DNA of 16,354 nt. Origin: a bacterium. Its GTDB lineage: Bacteria; Bdellovibrionota_C; UBA2361; CALJRW01. Every line of letters starts with the position of its first letter. The stretch's first letter is position 1. The translations under genes and the position numbers were made by a program. The stretch spans positions 1 through 16,354 of the forward strand of contig JANNBC010000044.1 in assembly GCA_031385045.1 (NCBI GenBank). Reading direction: 5' to 3'. The notes below the pieces were generated by a model. That model was not told the origin of the DNA. It saw nothing but the letters and a program-made list of their open reading frames with translations, and did not search any database. Shown here piece after piece: positions 487 through 6,909 of this stretch.

Positions 487-910
487 GGATTGTTATTATT
501 CATCAGGCGCAAACGAACTGATATCGGGATATTGATGGTTCTTATTTTTAATTCAAAGTTTATTAGGTTAAGCAGATAGCGATTAATCCAAAATTATCAT
601 GGATTAATCAGAAGCTGGGTTCGTTTAAGTGTCGCTAAGTGCTCTTTGGAAAAGACTATTGATTTTATTAAGTAAATTCCTATCAGCTTCCTCGGGTAGT
701 CACACATCGGTCGGTTAAAGTTCAGAATCTTATCTTCTTCTGCCCCTAATGCTTGATTAGGCAGTGAGAGATTTGTTAAGCTTTCCTCTGGCCTAGTCTT
801 TGGTCGTACACTGTTGTTCGCAAAGACTAAATTTAAAATTTAGATTTCAATCTGAGCAAGTAAAAATATCTCTTGTAAAAGATTTAGAAAGGTATATAAG
901 CAAAATTTAG

Positions 911-1312
911 ATGATCGATCCAACATTGTTAGAAATTGTCCCGCCCGTAAAAATTTACGTTAAAGAATCTCCTGGTAAAGGTTTAGGTGTCTTTGCTCGC
1001 AACCCAATAATGAAAGGGGATGTGGTGGAGGTTGCGCCGGTTCGAGTGCTTTCAGTTAAAGAGCGTGATCATTTAATCAAAGATGTTCCACCACTTGCTG
1101 ACTATGATTTCTATTGGAGTGATCGGCCAGAAGCTTCGGGGGCGATTGCCTTTGGTTATGCTGAGCTTTACAATCATTCTGAAAACCCTAATGTTGATTT
1201 GGTAAGAAGTGAGCAGAACCGAACTATCTCTTTTGTGGCTAAGCAAGACATTCATATCGGGGAAGAACTTTGTTTCGATTATGGGATTGAACTTTGGTTC
1301 GACGCCAAGTAG
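911..1312 (+). CDS. SET domain protein (putative lysine N-methyltransferase)
   Basis: SET motifs GKGLGVFA, YNHS and GEELCFDYG in a 133-aa stand-alone domain. Confidence 0.92.
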   Translation: MIDPTLLEIVPPVKIYVKESPGKGLGVFARNPIMKGDVVEVAPVRVLSVKERDHLIKDVPPLADYDFYWSDRPEASGAIAFGYAELYNHSENPNVDLVRSEQNRTISFVAKQDIHIGEELCFDYGIELWFDAK

Positions 1313-1389: not shown

Positions 1390-2649
1390 ATGAAAAAAAC
1401 TAACACTAAGGCTTCCTTGACCGTGATTTCGAAGCCTGATTCCTCTTGCGATACTGCTTCGGCAGAATCTGTTGCCTATATTCAAAAAACTCCCTCCCGT
1501 CGCAGTAAGTCAATTTATGTTAATGCCAGTCCGCGTTCTGTGGAGTTCATGAAGAAAAATTTTCCAAATATTGGACTTGCCGAATGGAACGACTGGAAGT
1601 GGCAAGTTCGTTGTCGTTACCGAACGGCAGAAACTCTTCGCACTATTATTAATTTGGCACCAGCAGAAGAGGAGGCAGTCGTCCGCTACCGACAGTCCTT
1701 GCCACTAGGCATTACTCCTTACTATGCTTCACTACTTGACCCTGATAATCATTTACAGCCGATTCGCAAAACTGTGGTTCCTGTTGTTGATGAATTTACA
1801 ACTACTCCTGGGGAGTCAAAAGACCCTTTGGGGGAGGATGCTGATAGTCCTGTTCCAGGACTGGTTCATCGCTATCCCGACCGAGTACTTTTCTTATCAA
1901 CAGCTTTTTGTTCCGTTTACTGTCGTTATTGCACACGTTCTAGGGCTGTTGGTAATTTTGCTGAGTATAAGTTTAATCGTCAGCAATGGGAGAAGGCTTT
2001 GGAGTATATCGAAAATACTCCAGCCATTAGAGATGTTTTAATTTCTGGTGGAGATGCCTTTGATTTAGCTGATGAACATTTGGAATATTTAATATCTCGT
2101 TTAAAGAAGATTAAGCATGTTGAATTTATTCGCCTAGGAACTAAGGTGCCAGCAGTTTTGCCGCAACGAATTACGCCAGCATTAGTTAAAATGCTAAAAA
2201 AGTATTCTCCAATTTGGCTTAGTTTACATTTTACTCATCCAGATGAGTTAACCCCTGAAACAGCCGAGGCCTGTAACCGCTTAAGTGATGCCGGTATTCC
2301 TTTGGGTAGCCAAACTGTTTTACTGAAAGGAATTAATGATAACTCGGAAACTTTAAAAGAACTCTTTCATGGATTGCTGAAAATTCGTGTTCGGCCTTAC
2401 TATGTATATCAGTGCGATCCGATTGCTGGATCGGCTCATTTTAGGACTCCGGTTGAACAGATGGTTCAGATCATTAAAGAGTTGCGTGGACATACCACTG
2501 GTTATGCCATTCCAACTTTTGTAATTGATGGTCCGGGGGGTGGTGGAAAGATTCCAATTCAGCCACAATACTTGAAAGGTCGCGAAGGGGACAATATCGT
2601 GTTAGAAAATTTTGAGGGTGAGAAATTTTATTACCCAGATCCATTATAG
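1390..2649 (+). CDS. kamA: KamA-family radical SAM/PLP enzyme (lysine 2,3-aminomutase-like)
   Basis: WNDWKWQ, LVHRYPDRVL, radical SAM CxxxCxxC (CSVYCRYC), SQTVLLKGIND, PYYVYQCD and the PLP-lysine motif DGPGGGGKIP. Confidence 0.93.
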   Translation: MKKTNTKASLTVISKPDSSCDTASAESVAYIQKTPSRRSKSIYVNASPRSVEFMKKNFPNIGLAEWNDWKWQVRCRYRTAETLRTIINLAPAEEEAVVRYRQSLPLGITPYYASLLDPDNHLQPIRKTVVPVVDEFTTTPGESKDPLGEDADSPVPGLVHRYPDRVLFLSTAFCSVYCRYCTRSRAVGNFAEYKFNRQQWEKALEYIENTPAIRDVLISGGDAFDLADEHLEYLISRLKKIKHVEFIRLGTKVPAVLPQRITPALVKMLKKYSPIWLSLHFTHPDELTPETAEACNRLSDAGIPLGSQTVLLKGINDNSETLKELFHGLLKIRVRPYYVYQCDPIAGSAHFRTPVEQMVQIIKELRGHTTGYAIPTFVIDGPGGGGKIPIQPQYLKGREGDNIVLENFEGEKFYYPDPL

Positions 2650-2660
2650 AGGTTAATCTT

Positions 2661-3704
2661 ATGTTGATTGGTTTAACTTATGATCTAAAAGAAGAGTACC
2701 TCGCCGAAGGGTTTGGGGAAATGGAAGTTGCTGAATTTGATTCGGAGCGGACTATCGCAGCTCTGGAATCCGCACTTCAAAATCTTGGTCATCAAGTTGA
2801 GAGAATTGGGCATGTGAGATCGCTGACACAAAGATTAGCTGATGGTCAGCGTTGGGATTTAGTTTTTAATATCTCAGAAGGTCTCTATGGCTATGGGCGC
2901 GAAGCTCAAGTGCCGGCTTTGCTCGATGCTTATCGGATACCATATACTTTTTCTGATCCACTAACGCTTTGTCTTAGTTTAAATAAAGCTGTTAGTAAGC
3001 GCATGATGCAGAGCTATGGTTTGCCAACTGCTTCATTTTTTCTTGTTGAAAAATTAGTCGATCTTAATAATCTCACATTACCTTTTCCGCTATTCGCTAA
3101 GCCTGTGGCCGAAGGAAGTAGTAAAGGAGTCTCAGCAGAATCTTGTATTCATAATAAAACTCAACTTAAAAAAACATGCTCTCGCTTATTAAAAGAATTT
3201 AAGCAGCCAGTTTTAGTTGAGAAATATTTATCTGGGGAAGAGTTTACTGTTGGCATGGTCGGTACTGGTGATACGGCAAAGGTGATTGGCATCTTTCAAA
3301 TTATTCTAACTGATCAAGCAGAGCAGGGTGGGTATTCTTACGAAAATAAAGTTAATTACGAAGACCGTGTCAAATATCAAATTTATGAAGGCACTCCACT
3401 CGCCGCTAAGATTAAAAAAATTGCGCTTGCCTGTTGGAGAAATTTAGGTGGCTGTGATGCTGGACGGATTGATATTCGCTGCGATGGAAGTGGGGAGCCT
3501 TATATTCTAGAACTTAATCCACTTGCTGGATTAACTCCTGACTACGGGGATATTATTTTACTTTCGCAGGCAGTTGGTATTAGTTATCAAAAACTAATCT
3601 CTTTAATCATGAGATCTGCCATGCAGCGTTTAAATCTAAATAATGATTCTGATGCGGACTCTCCTTCTAAGCCTGTGGCTGAAGGACAGGTGCTTAATAA
3701 TTAA
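2661..3704 (+). CDS. D-alanine--D-alanine ligase-like ATP-grasp enzyme
   Basis: DLVFNISEG, FAKPVAEGSSKG, LVEKYLSGEEFTVG, GRIDIR and ELNPLAG; AGAGG Shine-Dalgarno-like sequence upstream. Confidence 0.88.
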   Translation: MLIGLTYDLKEEYLAEGFGEMEVAEFDSERTIAALESALQNLGHQVERIGHVRSLTQRLADGQRWDLVFNISEGLYGYGREAQVPALLDAYRIPYTFSDPLTLCLSLNKAVSKRMMQSYGLPTASFFLVEKLVDLNNLTLPFPLFAKPVAEGSSKGVSAESCIHNKTQLKKTCSRLLKEFKQPVLVEKYLSGEEFTVGMVGTGDTAKVIGIFQIILTDQAEQGGYSYENKVNYEDRVKYQIYEGTPLAAKIKKIALACWRNLGGCDAGRIDIRCDGSGEPYILELNPLAGLTPDYGDIILLSQAVGISYQKLISLIMRSAMQRLNLNNDSDADSPSKPVAEGQVLNN

Positions 3705-3707
3705 TTC

Positions 3708-4676
3708 ATGAAAATTGCTGTACTATATACAGAGTTAACAGCTAATAATTCATCCTTTGAAGAATTAAGTATTTTACAGGATGCCGAACAAGTTCGGACT
3801 GTCTTAATTGAGTTAGGGTATGGTTCAATCCTAATTCCTTTTTGTCTCAATGATTTAAGTCGAACAACGGTCTTACTTCGGGAGTACCAACCAGATCTTG
3901 TTTTTAATCTAGTTGATGAAGTTGATGGCGTTCATGAGCTTTCTCACTTACCAACATCTTATCTGACGGCCTTAAGGTTTAAGTATACAGGGTGTAGTGG
4001 AATCTCTTTGGCGCTTACTACTGATAAGGTTTTAGCTAAGGAGATTCTCCTTAAAAATGGTTTACCAACTCCGCCTTGGCTTAGCTATCAAAACATTAGC
4101 AGTGAACCAGTATCCTCAGAAAAGTTTATTGTTAAACATCGTTATCTAGATGGTTCAGCTGGCTTAGATGAGACTAAGTTGCAGTTGTATGCTGATGGGA
4201 AGGAATTACGAGAGCTCTTGTTAGCAGATCCTGATCTAATGGCAGAGGTCTATGTCGATGGTCGAGAGTTTGCCGTACCCGTTTTTAATTATCATGGTGA
4301 GATTTTAATGCCCGGTGCTGCCGAGACGATCTTTAAAGACTTTCCCGCAGATAAATTAAAAGTAGTTGGTGCCTTAGCGAAATGGGAGCCAGCCTCGTTT
4401 GAGTATCAGAATACAATTGCCGAATTTAATTTTTCTGAAAACGATCAGCCATTAATTGATCAGCTAAAACAAATCTCTAGAAAATGTTGGGACGCTTTGC
4501 ATCTTTCTTCCTATGCTCGAGTAGATTTTCGAGTAGATCAGAATAATCGCCCTTGGATCTTAGAGGTGAATGGCAACCCCTCAATTGCAGCTAATGACTG
4601 GGTTGCTTGCGTTGCGGAACTTGCAAGTATTGCCTATCCGGAACTAATTAGATCAATTGTTGAGGTTGCTAAATAG
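3708..4676 (+). CDS. Second D-alanine--D-alanine ligase-like ATP-grasp enzyme
   Basis: PDLVFNLVD, TTDKVLAK, AEVYVDGREF, YARVDFR and LEVNGNP; starts 3 nt after the previous stop. Confidence 0.87.
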   Translation: MKIAVLYTELTANNSSFEELSILQDAEQVRTVLIELGYGSILIPFCLNDLSRTTVLLREYQPDLVFNLVDEVDGVHELSHLPTSYLTALRFKYTGCSGISLALTTDKVLAKEILLKNGLPTPPWLSYQNISSEPVSSEKFIVKHRYLDGSAGLDETKLQLYADGKELRELLLADPDLMAEVYVDGREFAVPVFNYHGEILMPGAAETIFKDFPADKLKVVGALAKWEPASFEYQNTIAEFNFSENDQPLIDQLKQISRKCWDALHLSSYARVDFRVDQNNRPWILEVNGNPSIAANDWVACVAELASIAYPELIRSIVEVAK

Positions 4677-4677
4677 G

Positions 4678-5169
4678 ATGATTAAAAACTCCCTTCCTTT
4701 AATCAGAACTAATTGTCGGCAGGCAGACTTGAGTAGTCTTTTAGATTTGGCCAAGCGTTCTAGGTTTTTTTACGATCATGAGATTTTGGTTTTAAAGAAT
4801 CTTTGTGAAGAGCACTTTCTTTTAGGTGAGGACACCTCGTATCATTTTTTATTATTAAATCAAGGCGGAAGGCTTATTGGTTTTGCTTGTTATGGTTTGA
4901 TTGAAGAGGCTGAAGATAACTACGACTTGTATTGGATGGTGGTAGATCCGGAAGAGCAAAGACAAGGTCATGGAAAGTTACTTCTGAGGGAGTCAGAGTC
5001 AGGAATTCGGGCTTTGGGTGGAAGACAAGTTAACATTGAAACATCCAGTCGGGAATTGTATTTACCAACTAGAAAGTTTTATGAAAGTCAGGGATATCTT
5101 CAGTCAGCTAGCCTGCCAGATTATTACGCTATTGGGGATCATAAGATTTGTTATTATAAGAATTTATAA
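4678..5169 (+). CDS. GNAT family N-acetyltransferase
   Basis: Acetyl-CoA motif A VDPEEQRQGHGKLLL and C-terminal FYESQGY. ATG4678 lies 1 nt after the upstream stop and is preferred over TTG4657. Confidence 0.9.
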   Translation: MIKNSLPLIRTNCRQADLSSLLDLAKRSRFFYDHEILVLKNLCEEHFLLGEDTSYHFLLLNQGGRLIGFACYGLIEEAEDNYDLYWMVVDPEEQRQGHGKLLLRESESGIRALGGRQVNIETSSRELYLPTRKFYESQGYLQSASLPDYYAIGDHKICYYKNL

Positions 5170-5176
5170 CTGAGAT

Positions 5177-5896
5177 ATGAGAATTCACATTGTTATGCAT
5201 GAAAGCTTTGAAGCCCCTGGAGCAATTGCTAAATGGATTAGTAAAAACAACTTAATGGTATCTTATACTCGTCTTTATCAAGGGGATCTTTTCCCTAATA
5301 CTGCGGATGCTTTTGATTTTCTAATTGTGATGGGAGGACCACAATCTCCCGCAACAACTCTAGCTGAATGTTCGCACTTTAATGCGATTAGAGAAATAGA
5401 TTTTATTCGCTCAGCAATTGTCCACGATAAGTTTGTTCTAGGAATTTGTTTGGGTGCGCAGATGATTGGCGAGGCGCTTGGTGCGAAGTTTGACCATAGT
5501 CCAAATCGCGAGATCGGAGTTTATCAATTAACTCTTACTGGGGATGCTAAGCAAGATCCGATCTTCCAGAGTTTTCCAGAAAGTTTTTTAGTTGGTCATT
5601 GGCATGGTGATATGCCAGGCTTAACCGCCGACTCCAAAATTCTAGCTAGTAGTGAAGGGTGCCCTCGTCAGATTGTTCGCTATACTTCTCGGGTTTACGG
5701 TTTTCAATGTCATTTCGAATTTACATCAGAATCAATCGAGGGGATGATTCAAAGTTGTGGACAGGAATTAGTTGACTATCAGCAACTTCCTTTTGTGGAA
5801 ACTTCAGAGCAATTACGTAGTCATGATTATTCAGCAATTAATCAACTACTTTTTCAGTTTCTTGATCAGCTAACAGGTGCTTTCAAAAACAGCTAG
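5177..5896 (+). CDS. Class I glutamine amidotransferase-like protein (stand-alone, GMP synthase glutaminase-like)
   Basis: Oxyanion motif MGGP, nucleophile elbow GICLGAQ, WHGD and the His-x-Glu of the triad in QCHFE. Confidence 0.9.
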   Translation: MRIHIVMHESFEAPGAIAKWISKNNLMVSYTRLYQGDLFPNTADAFDFLIVMGGPQSPATTLAECSHFNAIREIDFIRSAIVHDKFVLGICLGAQMIGEALGAKFDHSPNREIGVYQLTLTGDAKQDPIFQSFPESFLVGHWHGDMPGLTADSKILASSEGCPRQIVRYTSRVYGFQCHFEFTSESIEGMIQSCGQELVDYQQLPFVETSEQLRSHDYSAINQLLFQFLDQLTGAFKNS

Positions 5897-5958: not shown

Positions 5959-6909
5959 ATGATTTCTGTAGACCAAATAAATTTACCAGCAGTTGGGGAG
6001 AAGCTTAGTGAGAGCTTTGGTTATGTCTCAGAGAAAAGCTTGTCGCAGGCTAATATAATAGTTATGCCATTGGCCTCTAAGGTGACAGTTTCGGATATTC
6101 GCAAGCTAGCTGGTTGTGAGTCTGGTGAGGTAATAGTTTGTGATTTTAAGATTGAGGGGATTGAGCAAGGCGAGCAACTCCCCAATCTAGCAACATTTAG
6201 TCTAGAAAAAATAATTAATATTGATCATCATGCCAGTTTGGAATCAATGTTTAAGCCGATCTCTAGCGCTAATTTAGCAATTGAGTATGTCCGACTAAAT
6301 GGTGCCGTAAATCCAGAGATTCCAATTGTTGTTAATCACTATGATTGTGATAGCGTGCTATCTGCTCTAATCATGCGTGGGATTTTACCACCACTAGAAG
6401 TTTTTGGAGATGCTGTGATCGCCGCTGATCATACTGGTGTCTCAAACCCAATCGCCGATCTGTTACAGTCTTTTAAAGATCAGCGAGATTTTGAATTTTC
6501 TGCTAGAAACTTGGCTTTGTTTTTAAGGGGTCAAACACTTGAGACTAAAGCTGAGGAATTATTAGCCCAGCGACTGGCAACACGTGATTCTTTGGCTCGC
6601 TTGCCAGCTATAAAAATAGGAGCAGTAGTTTTAATTAAAACTGATGGGCGCGTTGATGCGGAACTATTCCCAGGTGTATATCCTGAAGCTTCTGTAGTGA
6701 TGTCTTATCATCGGCGGGAAGATGATCACTGGGAAGTAAGGCTTAGGCTTTGCAAATCTGCACCCGAGGGCTTAAATCTTCAAAAATTAAATATTAGAAG
6801 TATCGATCCCGCTTTTGGTGGACGTTGGAATGCGGGATCTAATGAGCGTGGCGGTGGCACGGCACTTGACCCCCAAGAGTATGCTAGGAGATTAAGTCTT
6901 TTGCTCTAA
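5959..6909 (+). CDS. Hypothetical protein, DHH phosphoesterase-like
   Basis: 316-aa ORF with IDHHA, NHYDCDS, AADHTG and C-terminal FGGRWNAGS motifs. Confidence 0.6.
   Translation: MISVDQINLPAVGEKLSESFGYVSEKSLSQANIIVMPLASKVTVSDIRKLAGCESGEVIVCDFKIEGIEQGEQLPNLATFSLEKIINIDHHASLESMFKPISSANLAIEYVRLNGAVNPEIPIVVNHYDCDSVLSALIMRGILPPLEVFGDAVIAADHTGVSNPIADLLQSFKDQRDFEFSARNLALFLRGQTLETKAEELLAQRLATRDSLARLPAIKIGAVVLIKTDGRVDAELFPGVYPEASVVMSYHRREDDHWEVRLRLCKSAPEGLNLQKLNIRSIDPAFGGRWNAGSNERGGGTALDPQEYARRLSLLL

Follow-up and report, generated by a model that had tools for sequence, protein, structure and literature searches.

In the AblA/AblB system (TIGR03820 and TIGR03827) a lysine 2,3-aminomutase is paired with a GNAT acetyltransferase, leading to N-epsilon-acetyl-beta-lysine. 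A comparable pairing is found on contig JANNBC010000044.1 of assembly GCA_031385045.1, from a bacterium of the Bdellovibrionota_C lineage. The window analyzed here is this entire contig (16,354 nucleotides), which belongs to a 2.83-Mb genome that is 95% complete. Its positions 1,390 to 5,896 encode an aminomutase, two ATP-grasp ligases related in fold to the D-Ala-D-Ala ligase (Ddl) and designated LigA and LigB, a small GNAT protein and a glutamine amidotransferase-like protein. The first four genes form a conserved cassette that might direct the synthesis of a short beta-lysyl amide. The cassette GNAT, unlike AblB, is a protein of 163 amino acids without a match to the AblB model (TIGR03827), and two ligases are added to the AblA/AblB scheme. 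In the apparent copy of the cassette in Desulfovibrio alaskensis G20, ablAB is moreover a separate locus with another mutant pattern, the cassette aminomutase being neutral in NaCl.

Other described systems share further parts of this logic. D-Ala-D-Ala ligase (TIGR01205; PDB 8EVX, 2DLN) has the same fold and the same ATP, metal and carboxylate-activating residues as LigA and LigB; the latter differ from it by an identity of 20-26%, the replacement of the donor-site histidine by an acid, changes in the acceptor site and the lack of a mur context. In EF-P beta-lysylation an aminomutase (EpmB) feeds beta-lysine to a ligase (EpmA). The cassette ligases, however, are of the ATP-grasp type and not synthetase-like, the aminomutase reaches 250 bits on the EpmB model against a cut-off of 369, and efp is present at 0/161 loci. 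The PylB/PylC pathway combines the radical S-adenosylmethionine (SAM) rearrangement of lysine with an ATP-grasp ligase (PDB 4FFL) joining the product to an amine. The cassette differs by its mutase family, by having two ligases, by an acetyltransferase in place of a dehydrogenase and by the absence of a tRNA or synthetase; 4FFL ranks 19 against LigB (Z 18.1, root-mean-square deviation 3.4, 244 aligned residues) whereas Ddl scores Z 30.3, so that the likeness is an analogy only. The beta-lysyl and beta-arginyl antibiotics streptothricin and blasticidin S involve an aminomutase, the amide ligation of a beta-amino acid and a protective acetylation; unlike them, the cassette lacks a non-ribosomal peptide synthetase, genes for a nucleoside or sugar scaffold, and a conserved exporter. 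In the polyamine cycle, acetylation neutralises a polycation. Its enzymes are a SpeG-type acetyltransferase and the acetylpolyamine amidohydrolases (PDB 6PHR, 3Q9B), to which an accessory deacetylase of some cassettes is closest, whereas ligases would make the polycation of the cassette, through amide links, and its deacetylase is optional and absent here. The cassette does not belong to AblAB, Ddl, EpmAB or lysine fermentation, and its parts would work like those of AblAB, PylBC and the beta-lysyl antibiotic pathways.

A conserved four-gene cassette

Five open reading frames (ORFs) of the plus strand, separated by gaps of 11, 3, 1 and 7 nt, were called in this segment, exactly as described in an earlier note made from the sequence of the window. 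The first (1390..2649, 419 amino acids) encodes a KamA-type radical SAM and pyridoxal phosphate (PLP) dependent 2,3-aminomutase, scoring over the cut-off of the TIGR00238 subfamily. It is followed by LigA (2661..3704, 347 amino acids) and LigB (3708..4676, 322 amino acids), predicted amide ligases matching PF07478 (Dala_Dala_lig_C), and by the GNAT (4678..5169; PF00583/PF13508), counted from its ATG. An upstream TTG at 4657 is also a possible start; the orthologue of the sister genome, from the same genus, is likewise 163 amino acids long. The fifth gene (5177..5896, 239 amino acids; NF006098) encodes a class I glutamine amidotransferase-like protein of the PRK08250 family.

Linkage was evaluated on 160 loci, namely the best 80 from genome and the best 80 from metagenome collections. 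These are the closest of many, and some are kin or duplicates; a LigA search gave at least 8000 candidates. The denominators given below are the loci with enough flank: at least 2.5 kb was required for the aminomutase count and 5 kb on both sides for the count of all four genes. The aminomutase is located upstream of LigA in 94/100 loci, LigB follows LigA in 98/109, the GNAT is present in 58/79, and all four genes occur together in 44 of the 58 well-flanked loci. Eight phylum labels are covered. Several fusions were also observed, joining the aminomutase to LigA (locus L164), LigA to LigB and GNAT (L135), LigB to GNAT (L016 and others) or one ligase to the other. ORFs of 728 amino acids in L182 and L183 were rejected as fusions, as distinct aminomutase genes overlap them in a different frame. 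In L186, L187, L194 and L195, a sensor kinase and response regulators separate LigA from the aminomutase and LigB.

The first four genes therefore constitute a real, conserved cassette, and the neighbourhood comparison proposed in the earlier note shows the expected co-occurrence. The grouping of the five genes exceeds chance for the first four and fails for the fifth. Arrangements of the kamA-ddl-ddl-GNAT type, mentioned in the same note as lacking a known characterised product, turn out to be widespread. No published description of the cassette or its product was found in the literature searched, which did not cover subscription papers; a 2009 survey of ATP-grasp amidoligases might mention the operon. 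PMC4641369 contains no terms relevant to the cassette, and PMC12361552 deals with a Bacillus kamA whose deletion is reported to cause no change of shape. The relatives of LigA and LigB, where named, are mostly labelled D-Ala-D-Ala ligase.

The distribution of LigA is patchy. It was detected in 2/41 genomes of this order, i.e. this genome and its sister only, and in 30/121 genomes of a Desulfobacterota-centred sample. In an unrooted FastTree tree, the window copy sits on a long branch, its nearest neighbour being a Rhodospirillales copy; as only such a tree is available, no donor is claimed. At that nearest relative (L020:6758-10388), LigB and GNAT are encoded on the other strand and face LigA; both are likewise diverged.

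Properties of the cassette proteins

The aminomutase contains the CxxxCxxC radical SAM motif and the PLP lysine, and aligns with PDB 2A5H, its only solved relative (E 1e-136). Residues C174/C178/C181, R183, D343, D380 and K387 correspond to C125/C129/C132, R134, D293, D330 and K337 of 2A5H. In the latter, the cysteines hold the cluster, R134 binds the lysine carboxylate, D293 and D330 bind the side-chain amine and K337 is the PLP lysine. D343, D380 and K387 are kept in 111/111 cassette copies. The best score was obtained with the lysine model TIGR03820 (473 bits, cut-off 525, the last 56 profile positions being unmatched), ahead of the glutamate (416) and arginine (390) models and of EpmB. As all the lysine-binding residues of 2A5H are retained, lysine, already favored in the earlier note, is very likely the substrate, which would give beta-lysine as the predicted product.

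LigA and LigB are 23% identical to each other. The LigA model (pLDDT 92.6) has Ddl structures as its best Foldseek matches. A wide fold search was conducted for LigB (pLDDT 94.0), in which ArgX, LysX and RimK come next after Ddl with Z about 20. Both ligases display the ATP-grasp Ddl fold with its catalytic Arg, Asp, Glu, Asn and Lys, represented in LigA by R269, D271, E284, N286, K109, K147 and K230. On TIGR01205, nevertheless, LigA scores 126 and LigB 71 bits, far below the cut-off of 246. The LigA alignment was built from 79 of 120 listed homologues. The presumed donor-site His of Ddl is E73 in LigA (143/143 copies) and D70 in the window LigB, where the family has Glu in 95/98, and the Tyr of the omega loop is replaced by V231 in LigA and W226 in LigB. 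LigA residues D8, E25, D27, E73 and D297 occur in 143/143 copies; of the presumed acceptor-site positions, Asp297 is thus invariant and Glu231 is found in 108/143. The acidic residues of these pockets suggest an amine-rich donor and an amine-rich acceptor. Judged by their sequences, LigA and LigB are not D-Ala-D-Ala ligases, and the possibility raised in the earlier note that they simply make D-Ala-D-Ala is contradicted by the profile scores and the replaced pocket residues. Another Ddl-like ATP-grasp gene of this genome, the third (L181:5097-7185, contig C60), overlaps with the gene of a putative zinc metallopeptidase (PF15887). It is much nearer to the LigB family than to Ddl, has the His-to-Glu change and forms a second orphan pair of ligase and hydrolase.

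The window LigB retains 76% of the family-conserved columns (median 98%) and the window GNAT 77% (median 96%). The divergence of LigB is clustered in the acceptor loop and is common to the sister genome, with respect to which LigB is under purifying selection (pN 0.20, pS 0.78). Given the divergence of both proteins, this lineage may make a variant of the product of the family.

The closest solved structure to the GNAT is 2R7H (E 1e-27), which is probably Dde_3044 of D. alaskensis G20. The commonest accessory gene, present at 24/160 loci, encodes a deacetylase fused to a GNAT-like domain; it is often located between LigB and GNAT, or fused to the GNAT. Among solved structures it is closest to acetylpolyamine amidohydrolases (6PHR, E 1e-75, 258 bits versus 136 for other bacterial HDAC-like amidohydrolases), by which it would be of the acetylpolyamine type. 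Among 50 other cassette genomes (taken from 50 of the 80 genome loci), 15 contain this deacetylase at an identity of at least 59% over the full length, beside the cassette in 12 of them. In an independent phylum sample, 3/4 further deacetylase genomes also hold the cassette compared with about 30/120 overall, although these numbers are small. Sixteen loci have a regulator of the sigma-54 type nearby, and in 9 loci the aminomutase and LigA are separated by a CxxCxxCC (YkgJ-type) gene. A search of the loci for a conserved carrier protein found none. Of the 161 clustered loci, at most 9 share any one small carrier or target gene.

Genome-wide searches of this organism detected neither EpmA nor AblB over the cut-off. 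No lysine 5,6-aminomutase was found in this genome; the search itself works, since 1/52 genomes matched. The absence of lysine-fermentation genes and epmA, first noticed within the window, is thus borne out for the genome. Its EF-P (L178:1303-1860) has a PGKG motif although EpmA was not found.

A predicted beta-lysyl amide pathway and its alternatives

The four genes are proposed to build a short polycationic beta-lysyl amide that is capped by the GNAT, a reading to which we assign a probability of about 0.5. An undescribed pathway to a beta-amino-acid amide involving the aminomutase, the two ligases and the GNAT had been suggested in the earlier note and is supported by the linkage and by the non-Ddl character of the ligases. 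The substrates and the order of the steps are predictions and can be summarized as follows. L-lysine would be turned into beta-lysine by the aminomutase. The two ligases would then join beta-lysine, their likely donor, by amide bonds to an amine acceptor, yielding a short polycationic chain. The weakest step is the acceptor, for which lysine, beta-lysine or a polyamine is tentatively put forward. The GNAT, which fairly probably acts on the ligase product, would acetylate a free amine and so cap and neutralise the chain, the uncapped product probably being harmful upon accumulation. Optionally, the acetylpolyamine-type deacetylase of some genomes would reverse the cap. In a broader and speculative extension, which we consider doubtful, many phyla would make a polyamine-like polycation without decarboxylases, from beta-lysine amide-linked by two Ddl-fold ligases, and an acetyl on/off switch (GNAT and deacetylase) would set charge and chain length; in this organism it would be the main home-made polycation, the diverged LigB and GNAT giving a second chemical variant.

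Functional data have been published for the apparent copy in D. alaskensis G20. Dde_3041 (aminomutase), Dde_3042 and Dde_3043 (Ddl-like) and Dde_3044 (GNAT) follow a sigma-54 regulator and agree with the cassette in gene order and spacing (PMC8836040 and PMC4045070, supplementary tables). All four genes are dispensable, whereas efp and a ddlB distinct from them are listed as essential; ablAB and aphA reside at other loci than the cassette (PMC4045070, Dataset S2). In two tests with 800 mM NaCl, GNAT insertions scored from -0.58 to -0.97 and from -1.00 to -1.63 (means -0.77 and -1.31), and at pH 6.0 from -0.73 to -1.01 (mean -0.84; PMC4215793, DataSheet2, as for the following insertion values). 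Insertions in the aminomutase, LigA and the center of LigB have means of -0.02 to -0.18 in NaCl, and the gene downstream of the cassette is neutral (means -0.04 and -0.14). An insertion located 12 bp before the GNAT start, which spares nearly all of LigB, causes a partial GNAT-like defect (-0.39 and -0.50; r 0.73 over 19 stress tests), whereas a same-orientation insertion within LigB does not (-0.07 and -0.03). If both insertions cut GNAT expression, the loss of LigB suppresses the loss of GNAT, which is the pattern that a toxic intermediate would give. These results argue against an osmolyte product and for the capping of a harmful intermediate; of the roles envisaged in the earlier note for acetylation, namely tailoring or self-protection, the GNAT-only defect favors protection or capping. 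In copper, all four G20 genes fall together (log2 -1.7 to -2.7; PMC8836040, Table S3). The aphA mutants do not mirror the GNAT pattern (r 0.05; PMC4215793). The GNAT profile correlates weakly with those of mutants in spermidine synthesis (r 0.26 and 0.38, or 0.53 and 0.44 without the NaCl tests), and this likeness was not used. With 0.1 mM THPS, insertions in Dde_3040-3043 (regulator, aminomutase, ligase) are mostly slightly fitter, with gene means of +0.30 to +0.48; four of the five rows of the Dde_3040 regulator reach +0.49 to +0.97, and the effect is much weaker in a second THPS test.

A number of observations weigh against the capped beta-lysyl amide. The G20 match is one of annotation, order and spacing, not of sequence, and the G20 effects are moderate and come from two GNAT strains and one edge strain. 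The polarity of the insertions is an assumption, the word polarity being absent from PMC4045070, and the GNAT could also act on another substrate, unrelated to the first. At pH 6.0 the aminomutase and LigA insertions are themselves mildly down (mean -0.30 each), within a range of -0.14 to -0.30 for the aminomutase, LigA and central LigB. Among the well-flanked loci, the GNAT is absent in 21/79 and LigB in 11/109, which a strict detoxification role does not predict. The aminomutase lies under the TIGR03820 equivalog cut-off and arginine is a possible substrate. The window LigB departs from the family at 11/45 conserved columns and LigA at 5/112, the departures including V231 and G296 of LigA and S21/S292/N296 of LigB. 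The deacetylase was not found in this genome. Neither was a polyamine-making decarboxylase, LysA being the only decarboxylase detected; a polyamine acceptor can therefore not be general unless imported, which favors lysine or beta-lysine, or an imported amine, as the acceptor here.

The cassette could alternatively modify a protein or an envelope polymer, beta-lysine being attached by the ligases, the adduct acetylated by the GNAT and the mark erased by the deacetylase. The gene set indeed resembles writers and erasers, with a SET domain encoded upstream here and the YkgJ-type gene inserted at the 9 loci mentioned above; ATP-grasp protein modifiers such as RimK and LysX (Z about 20 to LigB) exist, and the EF-P of this genome has its PGKG motif with EpmA not found. 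This is unlikely, however, as LigB is much nearer in fold to Ddl (Z 30) than to RimK or LysX, the deacetylase is of the acetylpolyamine type and no target gene recurs at more than 9 loci. EF-P in particular adjoins 0/161 loci, 32/50 cassette genomes have EpmA, and in G20 efp is listed as essential whereas the cassette genes are all dispensable (PMC4045070). A compatible solute, in the form of an extended N-epsilon-acetyl-beta-lysine, would follow the AblA/AblB logic of an aminomutase with a GNAT and agree with the salt sensitivity of the G20 GNAT mutants. AblB is moreover found in only 4/50 cassette genomes, so that the cassette might fill its role elsewhere, and AblAB in G20 could mask a minor osmolyte. 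Such a solute is nonetheless rather unlikely: insertions in G20 ablA and ablB cause a strong sensitivity to salt (means -0.83 to -2.00) and these genes are needed in NaCl only, compared with -0.02 to -0.18 for the cassette aminomutase and ligases, the cassette aminomutase does not rescue the loss of ablA (PMC4215793), and the cassette GNAT is distinct from AblB.

An exported antibacterial akin to streptothricin or negamycin, with the GNAT as self-resistance enzyme, would explain the GNAT-only defect and its apparent suppression in G20 as well as the patchy distribution of the cassette in this order and in the Desulfobacterota-centred sample. Beta-lysyl antibiotics are inactivated by acetylation. 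This possibility is improbable, given that no exporter is conserved (ABC-type genes at 8/161 loci, a DMT gene at 5/161), that scaffold-building enzymes are missing and that strong conservation over eight phylum labels resembles housekeeping or stress chemistry. A cell-wall precursor, considered in the earlier note, fares worse. Synthesis of an alternative peptidoglycan dipeptide by the ligases would fit their fold, the presence of MraY upstream in 3 loci and the 3/11 tested genomes without a Ddl-like match apart from one weak match. It is very improbable in view of the low Ddl scores and the replaced D-Ala pocket residues. This genome also has its own Ddl-like gene elsewhere (240 bits, cut-off 246) adjoining a MurF-like gene, both being slightly or well under their cut-offs, and the separate ddlB of G20 is essential whereas its cassette is dispensable (PMC4045070). 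Cooperation of all five genes, with the amidotransferase amidating or hydrolysing the product, is suggested by the 7-nt gap, the common strand, the intact triad motifs and the occurrence of other amide hydrolases near the cassette (Peptidase C26 at 4/17 further loci, DmpA-type Peptidase S58 at 3/178). It is quite improbable, since the amidotransferase is present at 0/160 loci and in 0/50 genomes and is absent from the sister genome despite the same diverged LigB and GNAT.

The capped beta-lysyl amide, if confirmed as a widespread beta-lysine metabolite, would correct the D-Ala-D-Ala ligase labels and contribute two amide-forming enzymes that are new. The proposal is readily testable: mapped mutants of all four genes are available in D. 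alaskensis G20, where the GNAT phenotype is selectable by salt and low pH, and a close relative of the GNAT has a solved structure (2R7H).

The amidotransferase slot and the flanking genes

The amidotransferase scores 344 bits on NF006098 (cut-off 301) and contains the Cys-His-Glu triad motifs C91, H179 and E181. The 160 related loci were searched for it by TBLASTN, and a profile search of 161 loci returned one weak match only, on a 510-amino-acid protein; the 0/50 count given above refers to the family over its cut-off. In the sister genome, the SET, aminomutase, LigA, LigB and GNAT genes are followed by an opposite-strand DUF2339 gene in the same slot and then by the same two downstream genes; no orthologue of the amidotransferase is present elsewhere in that genome. 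Its nearest named relatives belong to Patescibacteria and Micrarchaeota. The amidotransferase is probably a passenger in a variable slot and not the pathway member proposed in the earlier note. The Peptidase C26 found near the cassette is a different hydrolase of the glutamine amidotransferase fold and constitutes a weak point in favor of membership; together with the DmpA-type S58 occurrences, it suggests that amide hydrolases are sometimes recruited. The S58 peptidase lies beside the cassette in L034, L086 and L184, the first two being kin, and its family presumably includes beta-peptidyl aminopeptidases.

Upstream of the aminomutase, a SET-domain protein (911..1312, plus strand; PF00856) is a lineage-specific neighbour, possibly co-transcribed with the cassette. 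It is 82% identical and in the same position in the sister genome, and 0/160 other loci carry SET. As a stand-alone gene upstream of the cassette it is restricted to this genus, and a paralogue is located on contig C54. A non-coding stretch before its start (861..913, plus strand), probably a promoter, shows one mismatch to the sister genome over about 50 nt, although synonymous sites are near saturation. A scan for consensus promoters made no call at 861-913; about 10 nt separate the end of a possible -35/-10 pair from the SET ATG, in which case the SET message would be almost leaderless. No conserved leader was found between SET and the aminomutase, the window contains no Rfam family except rRNAs, and none of 7 proteins was matched by PADLOC. 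In all genes common to the sister locus, non-synonymous changes are far fewer than synonymous ones, indicating that these genes are maintained. The tetranucleotide fit of the contig is 0.963 (genome median 0.980, 5th percentile 0.951); this value within the genome range and the presence of the same locus in the sister genome make misbinning unlikely.

The five genes are followed by a weakly DHH-like gene, an SLC13-type transporter gene and an rRNA operon. The DHH match of the first, a protein of 316 amino acids (5959-6909), is weak only (E 4e-4); the genome encodes two paralogues of this protein (42% and 31%), and the sister genome an orthologue. A short ORF at 197-442 encodes an acidic cysteine-rich repeat (TIGR02232) and is perhaps the end or a relic of a larger surface protein. 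The rRNA operon, located at 10170-16106, is a complete 16S-23S-5S unit.

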